Positions 7,061 to 62,487 of a stretch of 64,000 bases of DNA are shown here, in pieces; the stretch's first letter is position 1, and the number at the start of each line of letters is the position of its first letter. This DNA comes from an archaeon (GTDB lineage: Archaea > Nanobdellota > Nanobdellia > Pacearchaeales > GW2011-AR1). A program made the translations under genes and the position numbers. The notes below the pieces were generated by a model. It did not search any database. It was not told the origin of the DNA and was given only the letters and a program-made list of their open reading frames with translations. The stretch lies in assembly GCA_030605415.1 (NCBI GenBank), contig JAUWIJ010000006.1, positions 2,335 through 66,334 of the forward strand. The letters run 5' to 3'.

Positions 7061-7969
7061 ATGAATATCGAGCAGAAGGTTGCGGAGACTATTAAGAAAT
7101 ATAAATTACTTAAGAAGTCGGATAAGGTAGTTGTGGCTTTGTCGGGTGGGAAAGATTCGACGAGCGTTTTATATATATTGAAAAAATTGGGATATAACGT
7201 CGAGGGGCTGATGATTGATTTGTATTTGGGGCAGTGGTCAGAGATTCATAATAAAAATATGATTAAGTTTTGTAGGGAGATTGGTGTGCCGTTGACGATT
7301 GTTGATTTGAAAAAAGAGGTGGGGCAAAGGATTTGTTTTATCAAAACGGTTTTAAAAAAGCAAAAGAACTTGACGGGGTGCACGGTTTGTGGAATTATTA
7401 AGCGGTGGATTTTGAATAAGTGGGCGAAGAAGATGGGGGCGAATAAGTTGGTGACCGGGCATAATTTGGACGACGAGGCGCAAAATGTTTTGATGAATTT
7501 TTTGAAAGGAAATATTTTGCTCGGGGTGAATTCGTCGCCAGCGACAGGGGGGAGTGGGGACGGAGGGTCGGAGGTTCGGGGTTCGGGGTTCGGGAAAGTG
7601 GGAACAGGGAAGGGGGAACAGCCGACAGCCGACAGCCGACAGCCGACAGCCGAAGGTGGCTTCGTTCAGAGAATTAAGCCGTTGTTTTTTATTCCGGAAT
7701 CTGAAATTATGAAATATGCTAAGAAAAAAAAATTTGATATTTTGTATGATAAATGTCCGTGTGCGTTTGGGACGTACAGGGTTGAGACCAGAGATTGGAT
7801 GAGTAATATAAGTGATGGGGAAAAAATGACGATTGTTAAAGAATTCCAAAAATTAATTCCTAGATTAAGAGAAGGAAATTTTCGGGAAATTAAGAAATGT
7901 AAAAAATGCGGGGAGCCGTCGAGGGGCGAAGTTTGTAGTGCTTGTAAGATTTTTGAATGTCTGAAGTAA
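7061..7969 (+). CDS. PP-loop ATPase of the TtuA/NcsA/TtcA tRNA-thiolation type, carrying an in-frame low-complexity insert
   Basis: SGGKDS PP-loop, GHNLDDEAQ, and a C-terminal CxxC...CxxC zinc ribbon. About 40 codons of Gly/Ser-rich repeat-derived sequence lie in the middle. Confidence 0.75.
   Translation: MNIEQKVAETIKKYKLLKKSDKVVVALSGGKDSTSVLYILKKLGYNVEGLMIDLYLGQWSEIHNKNMIKFCREIGVPLTIVDLKKEVGQRICFIKTVLKKQKNLTGCTVCGIIKRWILNKWAKKMGANKLVTGHNLDDEAQNVLMNFLKGNILLGVNSSPATGGSGDGGSEVRGSGFGKVGTGKGEQPTADSRQPTAEGGFVQRIKPLFFIPESEIMKYAKKKKFDILYDKCPCAFGTYRVETRDWMSNISDGEKMTIVKEFQKLIPRLREGNFREIKKCKKCGEPSRGEVCSACKIFECLK
7536..7655 (+). repeat. G-rich low-complexity repeat inside the TtuA-like CDS (copy R2)
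   Basis: gggagtggggacggagggtcggaggttcggggttcggggttcggg...(gccgaca)x4, the same words as the intergenic copies. No stop codon, and the frame is preserved. Confidence 0.8.
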
Positions 7970-9605: not shown

Positions 9606-10001
9606 ATGAGTGTAAATATAAAAGAATATCAGGAGACGTGTAAGATGACGGCGAAGAAATGTGAGAATGATAAACTTGAGATTTGCAATTGGGGACTTGG
9701 GCTTGCGGGGGAAGCGGGTGATGTAGTGTCGTGTATTAAGAAAGTGGTGTTTCATGAAAATGAAATGATTAAAGATGGTATACGAGAAAATGTGGGAGAT
9801 ATGATGTGGTATACTGCGATGATTTGTAATTTTTATGATTGGAGTCTGGATGAAATTTTAGGTGAGAATTTAGAGAAGTTGGAAAAAAGATATGCAAGTG
9901 GCGGGTTTAGCTTGAAAGAAGCACAGAGAAAAGGAACGATGAAAAAATGGAGTGGGACAGATTCTGAAGTTAAAATTGTGGGAGGTGTGGAAAATGGTTA
10001 A
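9606..10001 (+). CDS. MazG-like nucleotide pyrophosphohydrolase
   Basis: GLAGEAGD...VGDMMWY...LEKLEKRY, the all-alpha NTP-PPase pattern. Confidence 0.75.
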   Translation: MSVNIKEYQETCKMTAKKCENDKLEICNWGLGLAGEAGDVVSCIKKVVFHENEMIKDGIRENVGDMMWYTAMICNFYDWSLDEILGENLEKLEKRYASGGFSLKEAQRKGTMKKWSGTDSEVKIVGGVENG

Positions 10002-13000
10002 AAAAATTAGAAAAAGAGACGGAAGCGTTGTGTTTTTTCAGAAGGATAAAATTGAGAATGCAATTTGGAAAGCTGTTCGTGCCGTCGGAGGGAAAGATAA
10101 AGAGCGTGCGAAGGAGATTGCGGGTTTGATTATTAAAAAATTGGACGAGACATATGGGGTGCATGGAATCCCGGAGGTTGAGGTTGTTCAGGATTTAATT
10201 GAGAAGATTTTAATTGAGGAAGGACATGCTCAGGTTGCTAAGGCGTTTATTCTTTATCGTAAAAGTCGTGAAGAGCTGAGAGATGTTAAGGGTCTGTTCG
10301 ATACAATTGAGGCGGTTGAAGATTACATTGGCTTGGATGATTGGATGGTTAAAGAAAATTCTAATATGGGGTATTCATTGCAGGGATTGAATAATTATAT
10401 TGCGACGAAAATTATCGCGAACTATTGGGTGAGAAGAATTTATCCTGAGGCGATTAGACGTGCTCATGAGACAGGGGATTTACATATTCATGATTTAGGC
10501 TGTTTGGGGGCGTATTGCTTTGATGATAAAACTATGATTTTAACGAAGCATGGTTGGAAATTTTTTAAGGATGTTATCAAAGGAGAAAGAGTCGCAACGA
10601 AAAATTTAAAGACGGGTGATATGGAATTTCAAGTCCCTTATGGCAGACAGGTTTATAATTATTCTGGAGAGATGTATTCTTTTGAAGGAAGAAGCGTGTC
10701 CTTGAATGTTACCCCAGAGCATCGGCTTTTAGTCAGGAGAAAACACAAGAAAACATGGGAGTTTGTTAATCCGACCGAGTTTAAATATGGCATGGAATTT
10801 GAAAAAAGAGTTTCATGGAAAGGGAAAACAGTGAAAATGTTTCAGATTCCAAATGTTAAAGGAGGTAACCGGAAGAAAGATATCGAAAAATTTAAAGTGG
10901 AAGATTATGTAGAATTTATGGGATGGTATCTTTCCGAGGGTTCAGTTTATGAGCCGAACAAGGGAGATTATAGGATAAGCATTGCGCAGTTAAGAAAAAA
11001 TTATAGAGAAGAAATTTTGAAATTATTGGATAAGATGAAACTAAATTATAATAATCAATCTAAATTCAATATTCATCTTCATTCGAAAGATCTATTTTAT
11101 TATCTAAAAGGTTTTGGAGTATCTGGTGTAAAATATGTTCCGAAAAATATTAAGGAATTGGATTCTAAAATGATTAAGAAGTTTTTAGTTGCGTTGTTTA
11201 AGGGAGATGGTTCATTTTCTGTAAATGGAAAGTTGTATAAATATTATACAAAATCTAAGAGATTGGCAGAGGATGTTGTTGAGTGTTTGTTGAAAATTGG
11301 TATTTGTGGCACGATTACAAGGAGAAAGGGGATGAATATTTATATGGTATCCGTTGAAAATAACCACCTTACTCCTGTTTATAATAAGAAAGCTGTGAAG
11401 AAAAAATATAGTGGAAAGGTTTATGATTTTTCAGTTAAAAATGGAACACTGATTGTTATGAGAGAGGGGAAAGTTGTTGTTTCGGGAAATTGCGTTGGAT
11501 GGGATTTAAAGGATTTGTTAACGGTTGGATTTAAAGGGGTTAAGGGCAAGGTTGAATCAAAGCCACCTAAACATTTGAGAACGGTGTTGGGACAGATGGT
11601 TAATTTCTTTTATACTTTGCAGGGTGAAACTGCGGGAGCTCAGGCGTTTTCAAATTTTGATACTTTGCTTGCGCCGTTTGTGAGGTATGATAATTTGGAT
11701 TATGAACAAGTTAAACAGGCCATGCAGGAATTTGTTTTTAATTTGGCGGTGCCGACGAGGGTGGGATTTCAGTGCATGTCGGAAGATACTGAAATTTTGA
11801 CACCAAATGGTTGGGCAGGTTATAACGATTTAAAAAAGGGAGATGTAATAAAAACTTTTAATATTGAAAAAGGAATAATTGAAGATAAGCTTATTAAGAA
11901 ACTTTTTGCTAGAAAATATAATGGAATTATGTATAATTTGAAAAATAGAATTCAGGACCAGTTGATTTCTCCAGGGCATAGAGTTGTTAGAAGAAAATTT
12001 TGTGGGAATTATGTTTTGGAGAAAATTGAAGATGTTAAAAAAATAAAGTCGCCATTTATAGTTCCAATTGCCGGGATTAATTCCAAGAAAGATTCAAAAA
12101 TAAGTGACGAAGAAATAAAACTTCTTGCGTGGATAATTAGCGAAGGAACGATTGAAAATTATACGACGCATAGACATTGCAAACGAATTACGATATATCA
12201 ATCTAAATTAAAGAATTTTGAAAAATATAAAGAGATAATAAATTTGTTAAAAAAATTCAAGTTAAATTTCAACGAGAGAGATTCTTGTCCGGCTTTTGGT
12301 GATTCTGTTAAAATGATAAGAATGGATGCCAAATCTTCGAGGGTTATTTATAAAATGATGGGGTCAAACGAAAGTGTTAATTTTATACCGAAGAAGTTAA
12401 CGAATATGAGTAAGAAACAATCAAGATTATTTTTGGATACTTACATCAGGGGTGATGGTTTTGAAGGTTGTAAGATTGCTACAACAAATGAAAATATTTT
12501 GGATGGATTACAACAAATTTCTGTTAATTCAGAATATGGATTTAGTGTTTTAACCAGAAAGCCGACCATTGGAAAAAAGCTGATTTATGTTTTGAGGTTG
12601 ATTAAACATAAAGATACATATATTCAAAAAGTGGAAGAAGTGAATTATCAGGGAATCATTTGGTGTCCTAATACCGATAATGAAACGGTCGTAGCCAGAA
12701 GAAACGGGAAAGTATTTATTACAGGGAATACTCCGTTTACAAACATTACAATGGATTTAGATGTGCCTGACTATATGGTGAAGGAACATGTGATTGCGGG
12801 AGGTCAGCCACAGATGGAAACTTATGGAGATTTTCAGAAAGAAATGAATATGATTAATAAGGCGTTTGCAGAATGTATGCTTGAAGGTGATGCGACGGGA
12901 CAGGTTTTTACTTTTCCGATTCCGACTTATAATATTACAAAAGATTTCGATTTTGATAATCCTGAATATGATTTAATATGGGAAATGACGGCGAAGTATG

Positions 13001-14121
13001 GTATTCCTTATTTTTCAAATTTTGTTAATTCTGAGATGAAACCGGAAGATGTGCGAAGTATGTGTTGTCGGTTAAAAATAGATAATAGAGAATTGAGAAA
13101 AAGGGGCGGTGGTTTGTTTGGTTCAAATCCATTAACAGGAAGTATTGGAGTTGTGACAATAAATATGGGGAGATTGGGTTATGTGTCGACGGATGAGGAT
13201 GATTTTATGGCGAGGTTGGATGGGTTGATGGAGTTGGCGAAAGAGAGTTTGGAGATTAAGAGAAAAACGATTGAGAACTTTACAGAGATGGGACTTTATC
13301 CTTATACGAAATTTTATCTCAGGCAGGTTTATCAAAGATTTGGTGAATATTGGAAAAATCATTTTGCGACGATTGGTCTTTTGGGGATGAATGAAGCGGT
13401 GACGAATTTTTTGCCCGGGGAAAATATTACGACAAAGAAAGGTAAAGATTTTACGTTGAAGATTTTGAATTTTATGAGGGATAGGCTGACAGAGTATCAA
13501 GAAGAGACTGAAAATATTTATAATTTAGAGGCAACGCCGGGCGAGGGAACAACTTATAGATTTGCTCGGATGGATAAAAAAAGGTTTGGTAGAATTTTGG
13601 TTGCAAATGAAGATGCGTATCAGAAAGGTGCGAAACCATATTATACAAATAGCACTCAACTTCCTGTAAATTTTACTGATGATGTTTTTGAGGCATTGGA
13701 TTTGCAGGATGAGTTACAATGTAAATACAGCGGAGGTACGGTTTTTCATACTTTTATTGGTGAGAAGATGACTAAAGATTCAGTTAAGAAGATGGTTAAG
13801 AAAATTTCTAATAATTATCATTTGCCGTATTTTACAATTTCGCCGACGTTTTCGATTTGTCCGATTCATGGATATCTGAGTGGGGAACATGAATATTGTC
13901 CGAAGTGTGATGCTGAAATAGCTGAGGTAGAAGTTGCTCCGGTTTCTGTTGCTGATGATATTGTTGAAGCAGAAAAGAGAGATGAAAAAATTAGCGAGGT
14001 TGAAAGTTTTGGAGTGATAAAAAATCAAAAGCCAGAAGTACTAGAAGTTGAAAAAGTGGCGATGAAAGGAAATAATGTGTCGGATTTAAAACTAAATTTA
14101 AGAGGTGATACTAATGAATAG
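9994..14121 (+). CDS. nrdD: Anaerobic (class III) ribonucleoside-triphosphate reductase body, with two inteins; glycyl-radical motif not in this frame
   Basis: Start trimmed to MVKKIRKRDG (ATP-cone). NrdD blocks are HIHDLG..AYC|VGWDL, VPTRVGFQ|TPFTNIT and a C-terminal CPIH...CPKC zinc site. The frame ends in ~65 non-conserved codons. Confidence 0.9.
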   Translation: MVKKIRKRDGSVVFFQKDKIENAIWKAVRAVGGKDKERAKEIAGLIIKKLDETYGVHGIPEVEVVQDLIEKILIEEGHAQVAKAFILYRKSREELRDVKGLFDTIEAVEDYIGLDDWMVKENSNMGYSLQGLNNYIATKIIANYWVRRIYPEAIRRAHETGDLHIHDLGCLGAYCFDDKTMILTKHGWKFFKDVIKGERVATKNLKTGDMEFQVPYGRQVYNYSGEMYSFEGRSVSLNVTPEHRLLVRRKHKKTWEFVNPTEFKYGMEFEKRVSWKGKTVKMFQIPNVKGGNRKKDIEKFKVEDYVEFMGWYLSEGSVYEPNKGDYRISIAQLRKNYREEILKLLDKMKLNYNNQSKFNIHLHSKDLFYYLKGFGVSGVKYVPKNIKELDSKMIKKFLVALFKGDGSFSVNGKLYKYYTKSKRLAEDVVECLLKIGICGTITRRKGMNIYMVSVENNHLTPVYNKKAVKKKYSGKVYDFSVKNGTLIVMREGKVVVSGNCVGWDLKDLLTVGFKGVKGKVESKPPKHLRTVLGQMVNFFYTLQGETAGAQAFSNFDTLLAPFVRYDNLDYEQVKQAMQEFVFNLAVPTRVGFQCMSEDTEILTPNGWAGYNDLKKGDVIKTFNIEKGIIEDKLIKKLFARKYNGIMYNLKNRIQDQLISPGHRVVRRKFCGNYVLEKIEDVKKIKSPFIVPIAGINSKKDSKISDEEIKLLAWIISEGTIENYTTHRHCKRITIYQSKLKNFEKYKEIINLLKKFKLNFNERDSCPAFGDSVKMIRMDAKSSRVIYKMMGSNESVNFIPKKLTNMSKKQSRLFLDTYIRGDGFEGCKIATTNENILDGLQQISVNSEYGFSVLTRKPTIGKKLIYVLRLIKHKDTYIQKVEEVNYQGIIWCPNTDNETVVARRNGKVFITGNTPFTNITMDLDVPDYMVKEHVIAGGQPQMETYGDFQKEMNMINKAFAECMLEGDATGQVFTFPIPTYNITKDFDFDNPEYDLIWEMTAKYGIPYFSNFVNSEMKPEDVRSMCCRLKIDNRELRKRGGGLFGSNPLTGSIGVVTINMGRLGYVSTDEDDFMARLDGLMELAKESLEIKRKTIENFTEMGLYPYTKFYLRQVYQRFGEYWKNHFATIGLLGMNEAVTNFLPGENITTKKGKDFTLKILNFMRDRLTEYQEETENIYNLEATPGEGTTYRFARMDKKRFGRILVANEDAYQKGAKPYYTNSTQLPVNFTDDVFEALDLQDELQCKYSGGTVFHTFIGEKMTKDSVKKMVKKISNNYHLPYFTISPTFSICPIHGYLSGEHEYCPKCDAEIAEVEVAPVSVADDIVEAEKRDEKISEVESFGVIKNQKPEVLEVEKVAMKGNNVSDLKLNLRGDTNE
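10516..11490 (+). mobile_element. Intein 1 in NrdD (325 aa, LAGLIDADG homing endonuclease type)
   Basis: Starts CFDDKTMIL, has block B TPEH and LAGLIDADG-like motifs (FMGWYLSEGS, LFKGDGSF), ends VVSGN, and is followed by a +1 Cys. Removal restores GAY|CVGWDL. Confidence 0.85.
11773..12729 (+). mobile_element. Intein 2 in NrdD (319 aa, LAGLIDADG homing endonuclease type)
   Basis: Starts CMSEDTEIL, has block B SPGH and motifs LLAWIISEGT and YIRGDGF, ends FITGN, and is followed by a +1 Thr. Removal restores VGFQ|TPFTNIT. Confidence 0.85.
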
Positions 14122-14136
14122 GACGAAATGTGAGGT
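13929..14136 (+). other. 208-nt insertion in the nrdD 3' region bounded by tgaggt direct repeats
   Basis: tgaggt occurs at 13923-13928 and at 14131-14136. Deleting the 208 nt between them joins CPKCDAEIAEV to WSRVCGYLRP in one frame. Confidence 0.6.
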
Positions 14137-14272
14137 GTGGAGTAGGGTTTGTGGTTATCTTCGACCGACTGCCCGATGGAATGAAGGCAAATTAGCAGAG
14201 TTCAAAGATAGGAAGATGTTTAGCGCGACGAGAACTGAGAACTCGGCGGACAGGATACCCTCACAGATATAA
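14114..14272 (+). CDS. NrdD glycyl-radical domain as a separate 52-aa ORF (or a frameshifted nrdD 3' end)
   Basis: MNRTKCEVWSRVCGYLRPTARWNEGKLAEFKDRKMF carries the RVxGY glycyl-radical motif. Its ATG overlaps the nrdD stop (ATGAATAG). The last ~16 codons read into repeat R3. Confidence 0.55.
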   Translation: MNRTKCEVWSRVCGYLRPTARWNEGKLAEFKDRKMFSATRTENSADRIPSQI

Positions 14273-14580
14273 GGGAGAGATGGGTTGGGGCACACTGAGT
14301 CCAGAACTGAGAACTCCAACGAGAACTTAGATCTCAGAACTGAGAACTCCAACGAGAACTCAGATACCCTCACAAATATAAGAGAAAAACAGGTTGGGGC
14401 ACGCCGACTCAGATCTCAGAACTCAGAGGGGAAAGGGGGCAACCGACAACCGACGGGGCAGAAACTCAGAGGGGGAACGGGGAAGCGGGGGTGGCTCTAA
14501 GAGCGAATGAAATGAACGGTCTGAGTTCTCAGAGCAAAGCGGTCTAAGTTCTCAGAGTGAAACGACCTGAGTTCTGAAGG
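14226..14580 (+). repeat. G-rich composite repeat (copy R3) with two M modules
   Basis: gagaactgagaactc words, two accctcaca...ttggggcac modules (14257-14293 and 14366-14402), a G-run core, and then complementary words (gagttctcag) ending in gtgaaacgacct. Confidence 0.85.
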
Positions 14581-14615: not shown

Positions 14616-15320
14616 ATGAAAATTGCAGGTCTACAAAAAGTAACAACGATTGATTATCCGGGCGAGATTGCGTGTACGATTTTTTTACATGGATGTAGTT
14701 TTCGTTGTGGGTTTTGTCATAATCCCGATTTGGTTATTGGGGATTTTAAAGGGGGTTATCATGAAGAGGAGGTTTTAGAATTTTTGAAAAAAAGAAGTGG
14801 GAAATTAGATGCGGTTTGTATTACAGGTGGCGAGCCGTTAATGAGTTTGGATTTTGATTTTGTGAAGAAGATTAAAAAGTTAGGATATAAAGTAAAGATT
14901 GATACAAACGGTTCGTTTCCAAGCCGACTAAAAGAGATGATTGATTTGGGACTGGTCGATTATATTGCGATGGATGTGAAGAGTTGTAGAAAGGATTATG
15001 AAAAAGTTGCTGGTGTTAAGGTTGACTTAAAAAAAATTGAAAAGTCAATTAAGATGATTTATAATTTTGAAGAGTACGAGTTTAGGACGACGATTGTAGA
15101 AAGATATCATAATGTGGATTCCATAAAAGCTTTGGGAAAATGGTTAAATGAGATTTGTGGTGCGAAACCGAAGAGATATTTTTTGCAGGGGTTTAAGCGA
15201 AACGAAGGGGGGATGATTGATTCTTCTTTTTTGAAAGAGAAAGATGTTAGCGAGGAATTTTTGAATGAATTAAAAAGTAGTGTCAAAGAATTTTTTGAGG
15301 AAGTTGGGATTAGGGATTAG
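14616..15320 (+). CDS. nrdG: Anaerobic RNR activating protein (radical SAM)
   Basis: CSFRCGFCHNPD cluster motif, GGEPL, and position downstream of nrdD. Confidence 0.9.
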   Translation: MKIAGLQKVTTIDYPGEIACTIFLHGCSFRCGFCHNPDLVIGDFKGGYHEEEVLEFLKKRSGKLDAVCITGGEPLMSLDFDFVKKIKKLGYKVKIDTNGSFPSRLKEMIDLGLVDYIAMDVKSCRKDYEKVAGVKVDLKKIEKSIKMIYNFEEYEFRTTIVERYHNVDSIKALGKWLNEICGAKPKRYFLQGFKRNEGGMIDSSFLKEKDVSEEFLNELKSSVKEFFEEVGIRD

Positions 15321-15369
15321 GAAATTTTTTAACAAAATGTTTATATAGTAGTTATAAGTTCTGTATAAC

Positions 15370-15606
15370 ATGGAAAAAACAACTATTCAAATAAGTTCAG
15401 ATACTCTTGAAAGATTGAAGATGCTTAAGAGACACGAAAGGGAATCTTATGATTTTGTTTTGAATGTCCTTTTGGAAGAAGCTGAAGAAGATGTTTTGGA
15501 CGACGACGAAATTGACGAAATTAAGGAAGCTTTAGAAGAAGTTAGAAGGGGAGAAACTATTCCAATAGAAGATGTCGCAAAAGAATTTGGAGTAATTCTT
15601 AGATAA
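15370..15606 (+). CDS. Putative antitoxin partner of the RelE-like toxin
   Basis: 78-aa acidic protein ending 1 nt before the toxin gene, with an N-terminal TIQISSDTLERLKMLK segment. A paralogous pattern occurs at 45785-46051. Confidence 0.55.
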   Translation: MEKTTIQISSDTLERLKMLKRHERESYDFVLNVLLEEAEEDVLDDDEIDEIKEALEEVRRGETIPIEDVAKEFGVILR

Positions 15607-15607
15607 A

Positions 15608-15856
15608 ATGTATTTTGTAGAATTTTCTAAATCTGCTAAAAAATTTCTCAAGAAAATTTCTCAAGAAGATAAGAGTATACTCTTAAATAAACTTTATTCT
15701 ATAAGAGAAAATCCATTTAGATTTTTGAAAAGATTGCAAGGACATAAACTTTGGAGATTAAGGGTTCTTAAATATAGGATGATTGTCGACGTCGTCGTTT
15801 CGGGCAGGAAAATAATTGTTTTAAGAATTGGTTATAGAAAGAATGTTTATTCCTAA
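15608..15856 (+). CDS. relE: RelE/ParE-family toxin
   Basis: 82 aa. The KKFLKKI...NPF...LKRLQG..LWRLRV..YRMIVDV.....I.VLRIGYRKNVY layout is typical of RelE-type mRNA interferases. Confidence 0.75.
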   Translation: MYFVEFSKSAKKFLKKISQEDKSILLNKLYSIRENPFRFLKRLQGHKLWRLRVLKYRMIVDVVVSGRKIIVLRIGYRKNVYS

Positions 15857-15911
15857 TAGGGTGTTGGATATTTTTTGAAAGATAGTTTTGAACTTAAGAG
15901 GTTTGAATTAG

Positions 15912-16100
15912 TCAAACAGAATCATCTATGTGTTTAATGTCTGGATTTCTTGGGAGTTCTTTTGACGATTTAATATTGAGAAAATAACCACCCCCACGAG
16001 AAATAAAACTCTTTCCTAAAACAGACGCAGAATAATTGGCTCTTATGCGAATTCTTTCTTGCTCGGCAATATCTTCAGGGGTATCTTGATAATGTTCCAT
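15912..16100 (-). CDS. Hypothetical small protein
   Basis: 62-aa ORF in an otherwise empty gap. No recognisable motif. Confidence 0.3.
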   Translation of the reverse strand: MEHYQDTPEDIAEQERIRIRANYSASVLGKSFISRGGGYFLNIKSSKELPRNPDIKHIDDSV

Positions 16101-16152
16101 TAAGAATTAAATGAACTTGGATATATAAATTTATCTTAATAGTTTGGTTTTT

Positions 16153-17388
16153 TTAATTTTCTAACTTCCTACTCAACCTCTCAATTGCATTAACATACGC
16201 TGCAATTCTTGTCGTGGTTTGATATTTTTCCTTTTTATCTAGAATTTCTTTTGTCGCATTTTGCATTTTTTCTTTTAGCTTTTCATCTACTTTTTCTGCT
16301 GTCCATTTTTCCTGATTTATATTTTGGAACCATTCGTAATAAGAAACAGTTACTCCGCCGGCGTTTGTGAGAATGTCAGGAAGGATTAGTTTATTTTTTT
16401 CTTCAAGAATTTTATCTGCTTCGGGCGTTGTTGGTCCATTTGCAAGTTCTAAAATTATTTTTGCCTTTATTTTGTCTGCATTTTTTTCTGTGATTTGATT
16501 TGCAAGAGCTGCCGGAACTAAGACGTCACAATCTAATTCTAATAACTGTTCATTTGTCATGCAAATTGTGTCTGGAGTATTCATCACCGAACCCGTTTGT
16601 TTTTTATGTTCGAGAACTTTATTTATATTTAGTCCTTTTGGATTGTGGATTGCGCCTTTGGAATCTGAGATGGCAATTATTTTTGCGTTATCTTTGGATA
16701 TCAGTTTTGCGAAATTTCCGCCGGCGTTTCCGATTCCCTGAATTGCTATAGTTGCATTTTCCAGAGTTGGAATTATTTTAGTTTGTTCGATTGCTTGTTT
16801 TAAAACAAACTGTCCGCCTCGTGCCGTTGCAGTGTCTCGTCCGAGCGAGCCTCCGTTTTCTATAGATTTCCCCGTGACAACAGCTTTTGCTTTTTCAATT
16901 GGTATACCTTCTGTTTTAGAATATTCGTCGACGATTATGTCCATTATTTTTGAGTTTGTATATACGTCTGGTGCGGGGATATCTTTGTGTGGTCCGATTA
17001 CCGGAGCGATTTTTTTTATGAATCCTCGCGTTAAATTTTCAATTTCTTGTTCTGAAAGTTCTTTTGGATTACAAATTACTCCACCCTTTCCCCCTCCGAG
17101 TGGAAGATTCAGCGTCGCTGTTTTTATTGTCATCCAGATTGACAGGGCAGATACTTCATTGAGATTTACTTCCGGATGGTATCTTATTCCTCCTTTGTAT
17201 GGTCCGAGTAACGAATTGTGTTGGATTCTGTAGCCGGTAAAAATTTTCTGTGTTCCGTCATCCATTTGTACAGGGAAATTTACTTTTACTTCTCTTTCTG
17301 TGTTTAGAATTATGTCGAGAGTTTCTTTTGAGAGATTTAATTTTTCTGCCGCCTTTTTAATTGTGTTTTTTGCGTTTTCTAGTTCCAT
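16153..17388 (-). CDS. gdhA: Glutamate dehydrogenase
   Basis: PLGGGKGG motif, the GNAGGN Rossmann motif, and full-length Glu/Leu/Phe/Val dehydrogenase organisation. Confidence 0.9.
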   Translation of the reverse strand: MELENAKNTIKKAAEKLNLSKETLDIILNTEREVKVNFPVQMDDGTQKIFTGYRIQHNSLLGPYKGGIRYHPEVNLNEVSALSIWMTIKTATLNLPLGGGKGGVICNPKELSEQEIENLTRGFIKKIAPVIGPHKDIPAPDVYTNSKIMDIIVDEYSKTEGIPIEKAKAVVTGKSIENGGSLGRDTATARGGQFVLKQAIEQTKIIPTLENATIAIQGIGNAGGNFAKLISKDNAKIIAISDSKGAIHNPKGLNINKVLEHKKQTGSVMNTPDTICMTNEQLLELDCDVLVPAALANQITEKNADKIKAKIILELANGPTTPEADKILEEKNKLILPDILTNAGGVTVSYYEWFQNINQEKWTAEKVDEKLKEKMQNATKEILDKKEKYQTTTRIAAYVNAIERLSRKLEN

Positions 17389-17483
17389 AGATTTCTTTCT
17401 TTTTTAGAAAAAAAGAAATTTCTCTTCCGCCCAAAATGGCGTACCTCTGTTGAGGCAAAGTAGAAAAAACTTATTTTCCAAAT

Positions 17484-52557: not shown

Positions 52558-52960
52558 ATTTTTAAGCTAACTATTTTTTAGTAAATTTAGGTCAGCTTCG
52601 CTTCCAAAATTCAGAACTCAGAACTCAGTACTCAGAACTTAGACGAGATCTCAGATCTCAGTACTCAGAACTTAGAGGGGGAACTGGGAACTGGGGAGCG
52701 GGGAACTGGGGGTAGGGAGCGGGGGGCGGGGGCAGGGGGGCGTGCCCCCGGGGCAGGGCTTTCGGGAGTGGTAGTTCTAAGTTCTCAGAGCGAAGCGGTC
52801 TCAGTTCTAAGAGCGAATGAAATGAGCGGTCTCAGTTCTGGAACAAAGAGCAAAGCGGTCTCAGTTCTCAGAGTGGAACGGTCTCAGTTCTAAGTTCTAG
52901 GAGAAGTGAAACGACCTAAACTTTTAAACTAACTATTTTTTAGATGTTTTCCTGCATTAT
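52558..52960 (+). repeat. Largest composite repeat (copy R11) plus smc-3'-end-like tail
   Basis: Left end aatttaggtcagcttcgct, cagaactcag words, an ~80-nt G-run core, complementary ctcagttctaag words, gtgaaacgacct, and then cttttaaactaactattttttagatgttttcctgcat. Confidence 0.85.
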
Positions 52961-53067: not shown

Positions 53068-53451
53068 GTTTTTCTCATGTGTCCGAAAAAACTGTGGGAG
53101 CTTCGCGTTGTAATCAATACAGTTATACCCTTACAGATTTATCATTACTTTCGGTTGGACTGGAAATATAAATCAATCACGTCCCGTGGCGACGTTCTAA
53201 CAAAATGTCCACTTTGATAATTTTCAAACTTCTTCGTCACCCACAAGTAGACCGACAATATTTATATAATTTTAAATCATTAAGAATATGTTATGAAAAT
53301 ATGTAGATTTAAGATTCCTGCCAAAAAGGTAATGTTTTTGTCAAATTTTCATGCCAAAAAGATCATAGAAAAAGATTACATCCTCGACGATATAAATATT
53401 ATTTCCTGCCAAGATAGTAAGGTTTTTAAATAAAGAATCTTTATTATAATT

Positions 53452-58122: not shown

Positions 58123-58173
58123 GTAATTATATATTAGTTAGATTTAAAAGTCTTGAGTATGATTTCTTTCCAT

Positions 58174-58355
58174 AGCGAGATGGAGCAGTCTGGTCAGCTC
58201 GTGAGGCCCATAACCTCGTTTCGGATTAGAAATCCTCACTAAGTGTTCATCCTTCACACTTAAAGGTCGTGTGGTTCAACCGTCGCTTCGGAGAAGCTCG
58301 GCCGAAATCTTACAGATTTCTAAAAGTCCATAAAGAACTTTTTATCACGCTCTAT
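58174..58355 (+). pseudogene. Degenerate tRNA-Met paralog carrying two intron-like insertions
   Basis: The first 44 nt are identical to tRNA-Met. A 45-nt insert follows the anticodon stem, and cassette B lies in the T loop (58280-58343). The 3' acceptor strand lacks cgc, so it cannot pair. Confidence 0.65.
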
Positions 58356-58401
58356 TTTTCAAAAGAAAGCTTTATAATGCGTTTTTATCATTTAATATTA
58401 T

Positions 58402-58477
58402 AGCGAGATGGAGCAGTCTGGTCAGCTCGTGAGGCCCATAACCTCAAGGTCGCGTGGTTCAAATCCCGCTCTCGCTA
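58402..58477 (+). tRNA. tRNA-Met (anticodon CAU), possibly initiator-like (A1:U72)
   Basis: Acceptor AGCGAGA/TCTCGCT, anticodon arm TGAGG-CCCATAA-CCTCA, T arm GCG(T)GG-TTCAAAT-CCCGC with one extra nucleotide. Confidence 0.85.
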
Positions 58478-59259: not shown

Positions 59260-59539
59260 GATGCCTGCACTATTCACAATTCACACCTCGTAAAATTATC
59301 TTTTGAATTGTGTTTTACTCGGAGCAAATTGTTCAGCCAAACGCCCGTTTGTTCACTTACCGCCAACTTTTTATATTGTTATTTCTAATTGTTTTCATGT
59401 GGGGATGCCTACGTTATTCACAATTTGCATTTCGCAATCATATTAAAATTCGTTGGATTACTCAAAGCGAATTGCTCAGCCAAACGCCCGTTTGTTCACT
59501 CCGATAATTTTATAACCTTTATTCCTTGCATAATTTTAT
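59260..59539 (-). repeat. Two inverted cassette-A copies, each preceded by a tRNA-Leu 5' fragment
   Basis: gatgcc plus unit at 59266-59357, and atgtggggatgcc plus unit at 59410-59500. The units are the reverse complement of cassette A, and each contains ccaaacgccc resembling the tRNA-Leu D loop. Confidence 0.75.
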
Positions 59540-59623
59540 GTGGGGATGCCGGAGTGGCCAAACGGGCTGGCTTTAAGCGCCAGTAGCTTTACGCTTACGG
59601 GGGTTCGAATCCTCCTCCCCACA
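59540..59623 (+). tRNA. tRNA-Leu (anticodon UAA), class II
   Basis: Acceptor GTGGGGA/TCCCCAC, anticodon arm CTGGC-TTTAAGC-GCCAG, a long variable arm, and T arm GGGGG-TTCGAAT-CCTCC. Confidence 0.9.
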
Positions 59624-59742
59624 TGAGGATGAGAACCCTGTGCTTCGATTCCTTGCTTGTGAGATTTATCGAGTCAAGCAGCGAGGATTTTCAATCCGGC
59701 GCCCTCCCCACATGAGGATGAGAACTCCATGTTTCGATTCCC
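59624..59742 (+). repeat. Duplicated tRNA-Leu 3' end plus trailer
   Basis: ctccccacatgaggatgagaac.c..tg.ttcgattcc occurs at 59615-59652 and 59704-59741, separated by a hairpin and a degenerate T-arm-like piece. Confidence 0.75.
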
Positions 59743-59777
59743 AAGATTTATTAATGTATTAAATTGTTTTTTATTAT

Positions 59778-60627: not shown

Positions 60628-62487
60628 ATGAAGTTAGCGATTATTCACAAGGAGAAATGTAAGCCGACGATTTGCGGGCATGAGTGCAAGAAATATTGTC
60701 CCGTCGAGAAAAAGGAAGCGGATAGTTGTGTCACTATCGATGGCAAAGCGAAGATTGATGAGAACGCGTGTGTTGGGTGTGCAATTTGCGTGAAGCGGTG
60801 TCCGTTTGGTGCGATTGATATTGTTAATTTGCCGTCGGTGAGCGAGAAGGATATGGTGCATAGGTATGGAGCGAATGGATTTGCGTTGTATGGTTTGCCG
60901 ACGCCGAAAGATGGTTCGGTTCTTGGGTTGCTTGGAAGAAATGGAATTGGAAAGTCTACAGCTGTGAAAATTTTAGCTGGAACAGAGAAGATAAATTTAG
61001 GAAAAAAGTTTGCAAGCGATGAGGACATTAAAAAATTTTTTAAGGGTAATGAACTTTTGAGATATTTTGAGGGCTTGGATAAAAAAAAGGTTTCGTATAA
61101 GCCACAGAACTTGTCGCAGTTAGCGGTTGATGTGGGAGTTATGAAACTATTGTTACAGCGAGTTGTTTCTAATGCACCCAAGGGTGTACCTCCTGCCCAG
61201 ATGGCATCTGCTAACGCAGACAAGGTCGGCAAGATTAAACAATTGGCTGAAAGACTTGGCATCTCGTATGTTCTTGGAAATCGAATGGATAAATTATCGG
61301 GCGGCGAGTTACAAAAGGTTGCAATTTTAGCGGCGAGTTTAGGAGAGGCAAGTATTTATTTTTTTGATGAGCCTTTGGCATTTTTGGATATTGGAGAAAG
61401 ATTGAGGGTTTCGGATTTTATTAAGGAGATTGCAAAAGGTAAGTCTGTTATTGTTGTCGAGCACGATTTGTTGATTTTGGATTATTTGACGGATTATTTG
61501 AATGTTTTTTTTGGGGGGCAGGGGGCGTTCGGAATTGTATCGGGAGTTAAAAGTTCGGGGGTTGGAGTTAATGCTTATTTAAATGGGTTTTTGAAAGAGG
61601 AAAATATGCGGATTCGAGATAAAGTTTTGAGTTTTAATTTTACAAAAAATCCTGCTATGTCTGGAGCAAAGATTGCTGAGTGGCCTGCTTTTGATTTGAA
61701 ATTCGGGTTGGGTTTTGAATTAAAGGTTAATGCTGGCGAAATTCATGAGAACCATGTGATTGGAATTTTGGGAAAGAATGGAACTGGGAAGACTTCGTTT
61801 GTGCGGGCACTGGCGGGAGAAATTAAGGTTCGCAAGTTCGGAGTTACCCTCACAAATTCAAAACAAAAATTGGTTGGGGCAGACTCTCGGAGTTCGGAGT
61901 TTGAAGAGGGAGAAAAGGAAAGGCTGGATTTGGATTTGAGCATTTCATATAAACCTCAATATTTATTTAGCGAAAGCGAAGAGATTGTTAAGGACATTAT
62001 ATTTAGGGAAAAGATAAATAAAAAATTGTCGTCGGTGTTTAATCTTGGGGTTTTAGTTGGAAAGAAATTGAAGGAGTTATCGGGCGGCGAGTTGCAGAGA
62101 TTTAGTGTTGCGAGGTGCCTGGCGAAAGATGCGGATGTTTATTTAATTGATGAGCCGTCGGCGTATTTGGATGTTGAGGAAAGGATTTCGGTTGCGAAGG
62201 CGATTAAGGATATTATGGTTGAAAAAGGAAAGACGGCTTTTGTTGTAGACCACGATTTGTTGCTTGTTTCATATTTGGCGGATTCGATTATTAATTTCTC
62301 GGGAGAGAGTGGAGTTCGTGGGAAGGCATCGGAAATTAGTGGATTCGAGGAAGGGATTTCTGAATTATTGAAGAGTTTGGATGTTACTCTAAGGAAGGAT
62401 AAAGAAAGTGGCAGACCGAGGATTAATAAAAGAGGTTCGGTTTTGGACAGGGAGCAGAAAGCCAAGGGAAAGTGGGCTGTGTTTTAG
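60628..62487 (+). CDS. abce1: ABCE1 (RNase L inhibitor-type ribosome recycling ATPase) with an in-frame repeat insert
   Basis: N-terminal 2x[4Fe-4S] Cys motifs, two ABC domains (GRNGIGKST, GKNGTGKTS, 2x LSGGELQ), and extra codons between LAG and SYKPQ. Confidence 0.9.
   Translation: MKLAIIHKEKCKPTICGHECKKYCPVEKKEADSCVTIDGKAKIDENACVGCAICVKRCPFGAIDIVNLPSVSEKDMVHRYGANGFALYGLPTPKDGSVLGLLGRNGIGKSTAVKILAGTEKINLGKKFASDEDIKKFFKGNELLRYFEGLDKKKVSYKPQNLSQLAVDVGVMKLLLQRVVSNAPKGVPPAQMASANADKVGKIKQLAERLGISYVLGNRMDKLSGGELQKVAILAASLGEASIYFFDEPLAFLDIGERLRVSDFIKEIAKGKSVIVVEHDLLILDYLTDYLNVFFGGQGAFGIVSGVKSSGVGVNAYLNGFLKEENMRIRDKVLSFNFTKNPAMSGAKIAEWPAFDLKFGLGFELKVNAGEIHENHVIGILGKNGTGKTSFVRALAGEIKVRKFGVTLTNSKQKLVGADSRSSEFEEGEKERLDLDLSISYKPQYLFSESEEIVKDIIFREKINKKLSSVFNLGVLVGKKLKELSGGELQRFSVARCLAKDADVYLIDEPSAYLDVEERISVAKAIKDIMVEKGKTAFVVDHDLLLVSYLADSIINFSGESGVRGKASEISGFEEGISELLKSLDVTLRKDKESGRPRINKRGSVLDREQKAKGKWAVF
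61831..61908 (+). repeat. M-module-containing insert inside ABCE1 (copy R14)
   Basis: gttcggagtt, then accctcacaaattcaaaacaaaaattggttggggcag, then actctcgga, then gttcggagtt. Encodes VRKFGVTLTNSKQKLVGADSRSSEFE in frame. Confidence 0.75.

Follow-up and report, generated by a model that had tools for sequence, protein, structure and literature searches.

The gene for ABCE1 in a Pacearchaeales archaeon carries an in-frame insert built around a 42-nt repeat unit, which we call M. The gene lies in a 64,000-nt stretch of contig JAUWIJ010000006.1 (assembly GCA_030605415.1; hereafter, the window). ABCE1 is the essential ribosome-recycling ATPase and is among the most conserved, indispensable proteins of archaea and eukaryotes. 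A first-pass annotation of the window had proposed that an M module was inserted in frame in this gene, and our analysis supports that interpretation. We consider it probable that M is a frame-neutral, non-autonomous selfish mini-element, kept in a permissive loop of ABCE1, and that it behaves like the Rickettsia palindromic elements (RPEs).

The open reading frame (ORF) that hosts the insert (60628–62487, + strand, 619 aa) is indeed ABCE1/RLI, as first annotated. It matches Pyrococcus abyssi ABCE1 (3BK7/3J15) at E = 1e-141, with the alignment starting at residue 1, and mammalian ABCE1 at 7e-123. The N-terminal iron–sulfur domain has nine cysteines at residues 11–58 (PF04068 Fer4_RLI and PF00037 are recorded for the protein), and the cysteines required for two [4Fe-4S] clusters are present. 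Both nucleotide-binding domains (NBDs) are intact, with Walker A motifs GRNGIGKST and GKNGTGKTS, LSGGELQ at 223 and 484, and Walker B motifs FFDEP and LIDEP. The closest relatives are ABCE1 proteins of Pacearchaeota/“Nanoarchaeota” (DPANN), with a modal length of 573 aa. HMMER alignments to the solved ABCE1 structures break precisely between query residues 397 and 426, which places the insert just past the Walker-A helix of NBD2 (FVRALAG) and ahead of the strand that leads toward the Q-loop (SYKPQY).

The loop at this site (61825–61920, + strand) has 32 codons (KVRKFGVTLTNSKQKLVGADSRSSEFEEGEKE), compared with five in relatives (e.g., STSSG). Measured from LAG to SYKPQ, the stretch is 42 residues long in the window, the length first reported, and 15 in Pyrococcus; of 111 close homologues, 80 have 15 aa here, five have 13 aa and the other 26 have 19–56 aa. 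The excess over this baseline is 27 codons (81 nt), so the expansion noticed earlier is real, although its size had been put at about 26 codons. Other inserts, including differing modules, occupy the same NBD2 loop in 26 of the 111 relatives, among them a Pacearchaeota ABCE1 (P0064/L109) with an M-free (GTCGGNA)x5 array at that site. An AlphaFold2 run from a shallow 35-sequence alignment (mean predicted local distance difference test score, pLDDT, 69) predicts the insert to be a disordered loop past the NBD2 Walker-A helix. Residues 405–428 have pLDDT <50 (block means 24 and 38) and no secondary structure, with the remainder of NBD2 at 80–90. This result is consistent with a tolerated surface loop.

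The 81 extra nucleotides consist of a (GTTCGGA)3 heptamer array and its flanks, interrupted by one 42-nt M. The layout that the first-pass annotation gave for 61831–61908 is exact: GTTCGGAGTT (61836–61845), ACCCTCACAAATTCAAAACAAAAATTGGTTGGGGCAG (61846–61882), ACTCTCGGA (61883–61891) and again GTTCGGAGTT (61892–61901), a 10-mer that occurs three times in the window against 0.12 expected. M itself runs from 61845 to 61886 on the + strand (14 codons; TACCCTCACA-AATTCAAAACAAAAATTG-GTTGGGGCA-GACTC, read as (V)TLTNSKQKLVGADS). When M is taken out, the left (CGCAAGTTCGGAGT, 61831–61844) and right (TCGGAGTTCGGAGTT, 61887–61901) portions rejoin as CGCAA(GTTCGGA)x3G; thus, M interrupts a heptamer array. 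In the closest relative, the right portion has three full GTTCGGA units. The earlier reading of one M flanked by a 10-nt direct repeat was therefore right about M but not about the repeat. Both copies of the 10-mer (+ strand) are parts of the interrupted array rather than a target-site duplication, and the last T of the first copy is M's own first base. The insert is a layered composite, not one M plus a duplication.

M can be defined as a 42-nt unit, TACCCTCAC-N19-GGTTGGGGCA-N5, with fixed ends, a variable AT-rich 19-nt centre and invariant length. The window holds six canonical copies and one decayed copy, every one on the + strand. The pattern ACCCTC-N24-GGGGCA occurs six times in the window and not once in 200 shuffles, and in all six copies the spacing from ACCCTC to TGGGGCA is exactly 36 nt (a repeat search grouped the ABCE1 copy with the five others). 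The ABCE1 copy and the copy at 17827 share a 40-nt blastn match (35/40 identical, E = 7e-6). Forty-two distinct copies align without gaps, with 15 invariant columns and a centre that is free beyond its AT-richness. A covariance model built from these 42 copies was used on the window and on related loci. In the window it ranks the ABCE1 copy top (59.5 bits, E = 4e-15) and returns the same six copies plus the decayed one at 53126. The resemblance to other M copies is thus not due to chance, and the segment is not a native, lineage-wide loop of unrelated sequence: 85 of the 111 homologues have the short loop, and the nucleotide match to the M family is clear.

Comparisons between orthologs, all of them from metagenome assemblies, indicate that M is gained or lost as an exact 42-nt block without target-site duplication. 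The closest ABCE1 (P0002/L001, 84% identical) has the same insert, and its first M is identical to that of the window at 42/42 positions. In L001, a second M (TACCCTCACAAATACAAGGGAAAATCAGGTTGGGGCAGACCC) is nested after the 23rd base of the first, between CAAAACAAA and AATTGG; its boundaries are unambiguous, there is no duplication, and it adds 14 residues in a different frame. The P0002 insert was seen in four independent assemblies (three ENA samples and the metagenome-assembled genome (MAG) CBDVEE01) and so is not an assembly artefact. The ABCE1 of P0003/L004 (82% identical) has the bare loop GEISTSSGRLDL, an insert-free state of the kind that the first-pass annotation had suggested looking for in related genomes. 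An Elp3-type gene provides a clean 42-nt pair, empty in L031 (AAAAAA followed directly by GGAAAATC) and filled by an antisense M in L077 (+14 aa). No target-site duplication was found in the filled/empty comparisons of ABCE1 (window and L001) or Elp3 (L031 and L077).

Other genes tell a similar story. The isoleucyl-tRNA synthetase (IleRS) gene of L001 (- strand, 14988–17888) is lengthened by 26 aa through a composite at 17180–17275, antisense and in frame, that reads (GGTGTTC)n-M(39 nt)-(TGTCGGT)n. The L005 and L006 orthologs lack these residues, and the heptamer flanks of the composite total 39 nt, as in ABCE1. In the genome represented by CBDVEE01 and L001, PolD DP2 has tandem and nested Ms, one of them entering its host M at the same position, and one PolD DP2 copy has a centre identical to that of the ABCE1 copy within different flanks. 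M can sit within another M, beside another M, or within other modules. At L079, in the relative's genome, PolD DP2 (the catalytic subunit of the replicative polymerase D, a 1262-aa open frame) holds no fewer than four M copies, both tandem and nested, along with heptamers of the ACTACNA type, and its Pfam central domain is split among three stretches.

ABCE1 of the window also contains a second, independent in-frame insert, in NBD1, that we call the P module (61174–61235, + strand; GCACCCAAGGGTG/TACCTCCTGCCCAGATGGCATC...GACAAGGTCGGCAAGAT, peptide VVSNAPKGVPPAQMASANADKVGK). The closest relative (L001) lacks this module; L007, a 77% relative, has it. In L032, L057 and L093, where P occurs in other genes, M sits exactly after the GGGTG of the module (four copies, three genomes); both ABCE1 copies of P are without M. 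Together with the heptamer modules of a PP-loop ATPase described below, the P module bears out the suggestion that such elements persist in frame in conserved genes. A third module occurs in ABCE1 homologues (P0004–P0098; L005, L006, L007, L110). It encodes G(A/V)A(R/H)GIPSKEGT.VPSSSGK (DNA GGCATACCCTCTAAGGAGGGAAC...TCATCGGG), is found at at least five different ABCE1 positions among relatives with the frame constant, and starts with TACCCTC, as M does.

Beyond the window, we found at least ~50 further M copies in ~40 DPANN loci from Pacearchaeota/Woesearchaeota-type genomes. A scan for the end pattern covered one genome per prokaryotic species, and the counts that follow are among the matches listed. 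About half of those matches come from DPANN MAGs, several of which are multi-copy, and the others are single matches in large bacterial genomes. Covariance scores separate the two, with true M copies at 38–62 bits, all in DPANN loci, and bacterial matches at ≤23 bits. Among the matches listed, M is specific to Pacearchaeota/Woesearchaeota-type DPANN archaea. A viral origin was considered and rejected, as all 11 pattern matches in IMG/VR lack the M-type centre and tail and are attributable to chance. Scanning the whole window against Rfam (4227 families, gathering thresholds) returned only four tRNAs and no match to M. Full-text literature searches, including the M end sequences as query, gave no account of such elements in DPANN, and repeats go unmentioned in a 2026 preprint about the insertions found in universal proteins of DPANN.

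M is compatible with coding sequence. It comprises 14 codons and has a fixed stop in only one of six frames (TGA in the antisense TGTGAGGGTA), so insertion would preserve the frame every time and often keep it open. About 25 of 50 M copies lie within long ORFs (~14 sense, ~11 antisense), and five frames are used, giving the peptides PSQ..LGQ, TLT..VGAD, YPH..GWG, SAPT..VRV and CPN..EG. The in-frame hosts are ABCE1, PolD DP2, IleRS, Elp3-type radical SAM, Trm5/Tyw2, L31e and S3Ae (gene calls in related loci are our own open-frame calls, Pfam-backed for six proteins).

M also shows a strong strand polarity. In 31 of 33 loci, M lies on whichever strand is locally richer in G, and each of the 11 multi-copy loci (the window and ten others) has all its copies in one orientation. 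GC skew in the window itself is very strong and uniform, at +0.29 (G 14894, C 8138) and between +0.3 and +0.4 in most 4-kb blocks; of its 52 long ORFs, 42 are on the + strand. In these genomes, the G-rich strand is the sense strand for most genes. Because M is often antisense to its own host gene yet on the G-rich strand, its orientation may be set by replication direction rather than by transcription, a more speculative step that takes base composition as a proxy.

The ends of M can pair with each other (C3-G35, C4-G34, C5-G33, U6.G32, A8-U30, C9-G29). At pair 8:30, 39 copies have A-U and three, from three genomes, have G-C; this pair is never broken and is the only one that covaries. Viewed as inverted repeats, the 9-nt ends TACCCTCAC and TGCCCCAAC match at six of nine positions. 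The idea that M is a structured RNA or stable hairpin was rejected, as single copies folded as RNA or DNA do not outdo shuffled sequence, conserved pairing is confined to the basal 6 bp, and covariation to a single pair. The 8:30 covariation would be expected equally if a dimeric protein reads two inverted ends. The ends of M can be described as imperfect terminal inverted repeats or a weak hairpin, no more. We also rejected a CRISPR-like arrangement (a 25-nt junction “repeat” plus an 18-nt “spacer”), as the copies are mostly solitary, nested or genic, and their centres are related AT-rich sequences.

The remaining copies in the window are all on the + strand. Two (14256–14297, with (GAGAACT)n flanks, and 14365–14406) lie in the nrdD–nrdG intergenic module cluster and were found by both the pattern and the covariance model. 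The copy nearest to that of ABCE1 (17827–17868; blastn and covariance model) has similar flanks (GAAGTTCGGCGTT... before M and TTCGGAGCGGGGG after it). A further copy (20363–20404) is preceded by (GGTATTC)x3 and lies in a 159-nt cluster. Bracketing this cluster is a 47-nt duplication (20277–20323 and 20483–20529, identical at 45 of 47 positions) that derives from a gene's 5′ end (20486–21493); the upstream 47-nt copy is a truncated gene start of 15 codons that runs on into modules. The decayed copy (53126–53162, TACCCTtACAGATTTATCATTACTTTCGGTTGGactgg) scores 15.5 bits (E = 0.04), the best value in the window outside the six canonical copies. One copy (17483–17524) stands alone in an AT-rich spacer. 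It shares its flanks (..TTTTCCAA before M and ACTTTGTTTTGATTTAATT after it) with a copy in a Pacearchaeota MAG (L050, 4855–4896), and so this intergenic copy is orthologous and old; the window has G8:C30 where L050 has A8:T30, a compensated change.

Several other features of the window should be noted. Every repeat unit in its module clusters has a 7-nt period. The clusters at 14221–14580 and 52600–52900 are large imperfect palindromes, with (GAGAACT)n on the left, the reverse-complement heptamers (AGTTCTC)n on the right, and a G-rich centre (GGGGAAG/GGGGCAG-type heptamers). The PP-loop ATPase gene (PF01171, 7061–7969) has an in-frame, M-free insert of ~38 aa, rich in G, S and T, at ~7530–7660, encoded by the heptamer arrays (GGGGTTC)n and (ACAGCCG)x5; this is probably the other case of in-frame survival that the first-pass annotation had in mind. 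The nrdD gene (9994–14272; 1375 aa) has two intein-sized insertions, and its C-terminal glycyl-radical segment (RVCGYLRP) is in another frame (ORF 14105–14272, 17-nt overlap), with an end that runs into the cluster. The frame break may reflect a frameshift, an error or yet another insertion. Near the tRNA genes, there is a 77-nt pair (25419–25495 and 58275–58351, 83% identical) downstream of two tRNAs, a 78-nt pair (58140–58217 and 58368–58445) that takes in the 5′ half of the tRNA at 58402, and four copies of the motif TCCCCACATGAGGATG around the tRNAs at 59540 and 59778 (59395–59760).

To account for M, we propose that it is copied in trans as a non-autonomous selfish element. With ~90% of the genome coding, lasting copies within genes would be those that landed in tolerant surface loops. 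In ABCE1, the insert would be transcribed and translated as a flexible, hydrophilic, disordered loop that leaves the ATPase core intact and the gene functional. The insertion is presumably older than the split between the window organism and the L001/CBDVEE01 organism, in which a further M would later have entered the first. Given the polarity on the G-rich strand and the lack of duplication at junctions, copying is probably replication-coupled, although this is more speculative, as are the candidate routes: single-strand DNA transposition of the type used by IS200/IS605 (insertion sequence) and repetitive extragenic palindromic (REP) elements, or polymerase template switching. The former fits both the lack of duplication and the polarity. 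The heptamer arrays may, equally speculatively, be preferred landing pads or by-products of insertion. The window contains no long element with M ends, since each TACCCTC on its M strand has a TGGGGCA exactly 36 nt away.

Several observations weigh against this proposal. A Pfam scan of 20 window ORFs found no transposase domain, and a tblastn search of a small sample (790 kb) of M-bearing loci with approximate TnpA/RAYT (REP-associated tyrosine transposase) queries gave nothing below E = 0.08. An M-free allele of the window's own ABCE1 lineage was not found in a collection of 5.8 billion proteins, where the best relatives are 84% identical with the insert and 82% without it. Both the empty state of the primary ABCE1 M (from the restored heptamer array and more distant orthologs) and the presence of the insert in ABCE1 mRNA and protein are points that we infer. 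G-richness is only a proxy for replication direction, and the M hairpin is weak (minimum free energy -2 to -8 kcal/mol, z -0.4 to +1.6 relative to shuffles). Finally, the insert DNA is unexpectedly conserved. The ABCE1 genes of the window and L001 are 84.5% identical, whereas the heptamer array and M core have one difference in 77 nt, compared with 15.5% overall (Fisher p = 3e-5), and third codon positions are identical at 25/26 in the insert versus 389/575 outside it (Fisher p = 6e-4). A neutral passenger should diverge at least as much as synonymous sites, so this conservation is not what a neutral-passenger view predicts. It may reflect constraint at the nucleotide level, concerted evolution with other copies, or a recent transfer.

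The alternative that most needs weighing dispenses with a dedicated enzyme: M and the heptamer arrays would be copied by replication template switching or ectopic gene conversion, via microhomology or heptamer arms. We regard this as unlikely but worth serious attention. It agrees with the lack of target duplication at any junction and with the negative transposase searches (20 window ORFs; 790 kb), and concerted evolution would suit the interspecies identity of the insert. Moreover, M is mostly found within or beside similar heptamer arrays (GTTCGG-type in ABCE1, at 17806–17880 and in L001 IleRS), it lands beside sequence resembling its own 5′ end (GGGTG followed by TACCTCC in the P module; M next to M in tandems), and one cluster is bracketed by the 47-nt duplication. 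However, heptamer arms are missing, and microhomology is slight or absent, at the clean 42-nt insertions in Elp3 and within the AT-rich loop of another M, and a length fixed at 42 nt with such sharply conserved ends suggests that defined termini are recognised. The insert could instead be a functional acquisition rather than a passenger, either as a polar, replication-oriented or regulatory DNA or RNA motif that happens to lie in genes or as a selected new surface loop of ABCE1. Synonymous positions far more conserved than in the host gene, the strong strand polarity, ends that are invariant across phylum-level diversity, and an intergenic copy kept at an orthologous position with a compensatory change would all accord with this. 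Yet the central 19 nt vary freely, most close ABCE1 relatives lack the insert, and the loop is predicted to be disordered. Furthermore, occurrence in unrelated genes, in either orientation and in five frames makes a common peptide or mRNA role impossible, and we consider functional acquisition improbable.

Excision of M from the transcript as a mini-intron (e.g., by the archaeal splicing endonuclease), leaving the protein unchanged, is more improbable still, and markedly so. The conserved ends are able to pair (on the M strand, one G.U is invariant and one pair covaries) and nucleotide conservation exceeds that of the gene, but M has different flanks at each locus, which precludes a common bulge-helix-bulge with the exons; the predicted fold of the ABCE1 region is a plain, weak, imperfect hairpin. 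Copies antisense to their host genes are also stop-free, and 39 nt of heptamer flanks would remain in the mRNA anyway. To the last possibility, that this is a native, lineage-specific loop grown by slippage, with its resemblance to M coincidental or an assembly artefact, we give almost no credence. The NBD2 loop is a hot spot for length change in the clade and heptamer arrays could grow by slippage, but the family match (E = 4e-15), the 42/42 identical copy in an independently assembled relative known from several samples, the exact 42-nt nested copy and the insert-free 82% relative all speak against it, and we rejected this candidate on the independent assemblies, the L001/L004 comparison and the covariance match.

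With the selfish mini-element as our preferred explanation, a broader view is possible, and we put it forward tentatively. Pacearchaeota/Woesearchaeota-type DPANN archaea may have an undescribed system of coding-compatible mini-elements, comprising the 42-nt M, P and K modules of ~60 nt, and 7-nt arrays, with replication-strand polarity, no target duplication and a mechanism new among transposon families, that routinely enter essential genes in frame (ABCE1, PolD, IleRS, Elp3 and ribosomal proteins). Were such a system real, the most conserved proteins of archaea would owe it a major and continuing supply of loop insertions. Selfish DNA inside ABCE1 would show the reach of elements built not to break frames. 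If the M family is as general as the loci sampled here suggest, it would explain much of the length variation of universal DPANN proteins, and would call for caution with phylogenies and with “signature insertion” arguments, given an ABCE1 loop struck independently by at least four kinds of module. Its 42-nt unit, lack of duplication, polarity and heptamers pose a mechanistic problem whose study could reveal a new mobilising enzyme or a new repair pathway, and M would be an archaeal counterpart of the RPEs, again in a reduced, host-dependent genome.

How does M compare with known short elements? [quoted passage not shown] However, MITEs are usually 100–400 bp long, with target-site duplications and a parent insertion sequence that has the same ends, whereas M is 42 nt long and makes no duplication; classification as a MITE was rejected because the filled/empty pairs of ABCE1 and Elp3 lack target-site duplications. 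The REP elements and bacterial interspersed mosaic elements (BIMEs) associated with RAYT, and palindrome-associated elements derived from IS200/IS605, are very short like M (REPs are 20–40 nt), have pairable ends and are not mobile alone. REP-type elements and M also share the absence of target-site duplication and an orientation bias consistent with a single-strand, replication-linked mechanism. Nevertheless, REPs form stable, GC-rich palindromes, carry a conserved GTAG/CGTC tag and lie essentially outside genes, whereas M has a weak hairpin and about half of its copies are intragenic; we found no conserved tetranucleotide 5′ of M and no stable GC-rich palindrome. The attC sites of integrons offer an analogy only, with imperfectly paired conserved ends, a variable centre and a strand-specific, folded single-strand logic, but they are 57–141 bp long, are parts of gene cassettes and require the IntI integrase and an attI platform, none of which is seen with M.

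The closest parallel in behaviour is with the RPEs, which integrate in frame in many conserved genes (Ogata et al. 2000, as summarised in PMC10969869). Both RPEs and M are short, non-coding, multi-copy repeats of a reduced genome, found in frame in unrelated conserved genes as well as in intergenic copies, and in both cases the added peptide segment is tolerated by the fold of the host protein. RPEs are bacterial, ~100–150 bp long and encode a conserved peptide each, whereas M is archaeal, is a third of that size at 42 nt and has a variable centre read in five frames. Unlike RPEs, M nests in itself and in other modules, travels with heptamer arrays and has a strong strand polarity, and there is no sequence similarity between them. 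M is thus closest in behaviour to the RPEs, yet it is not a member of the RPE family.

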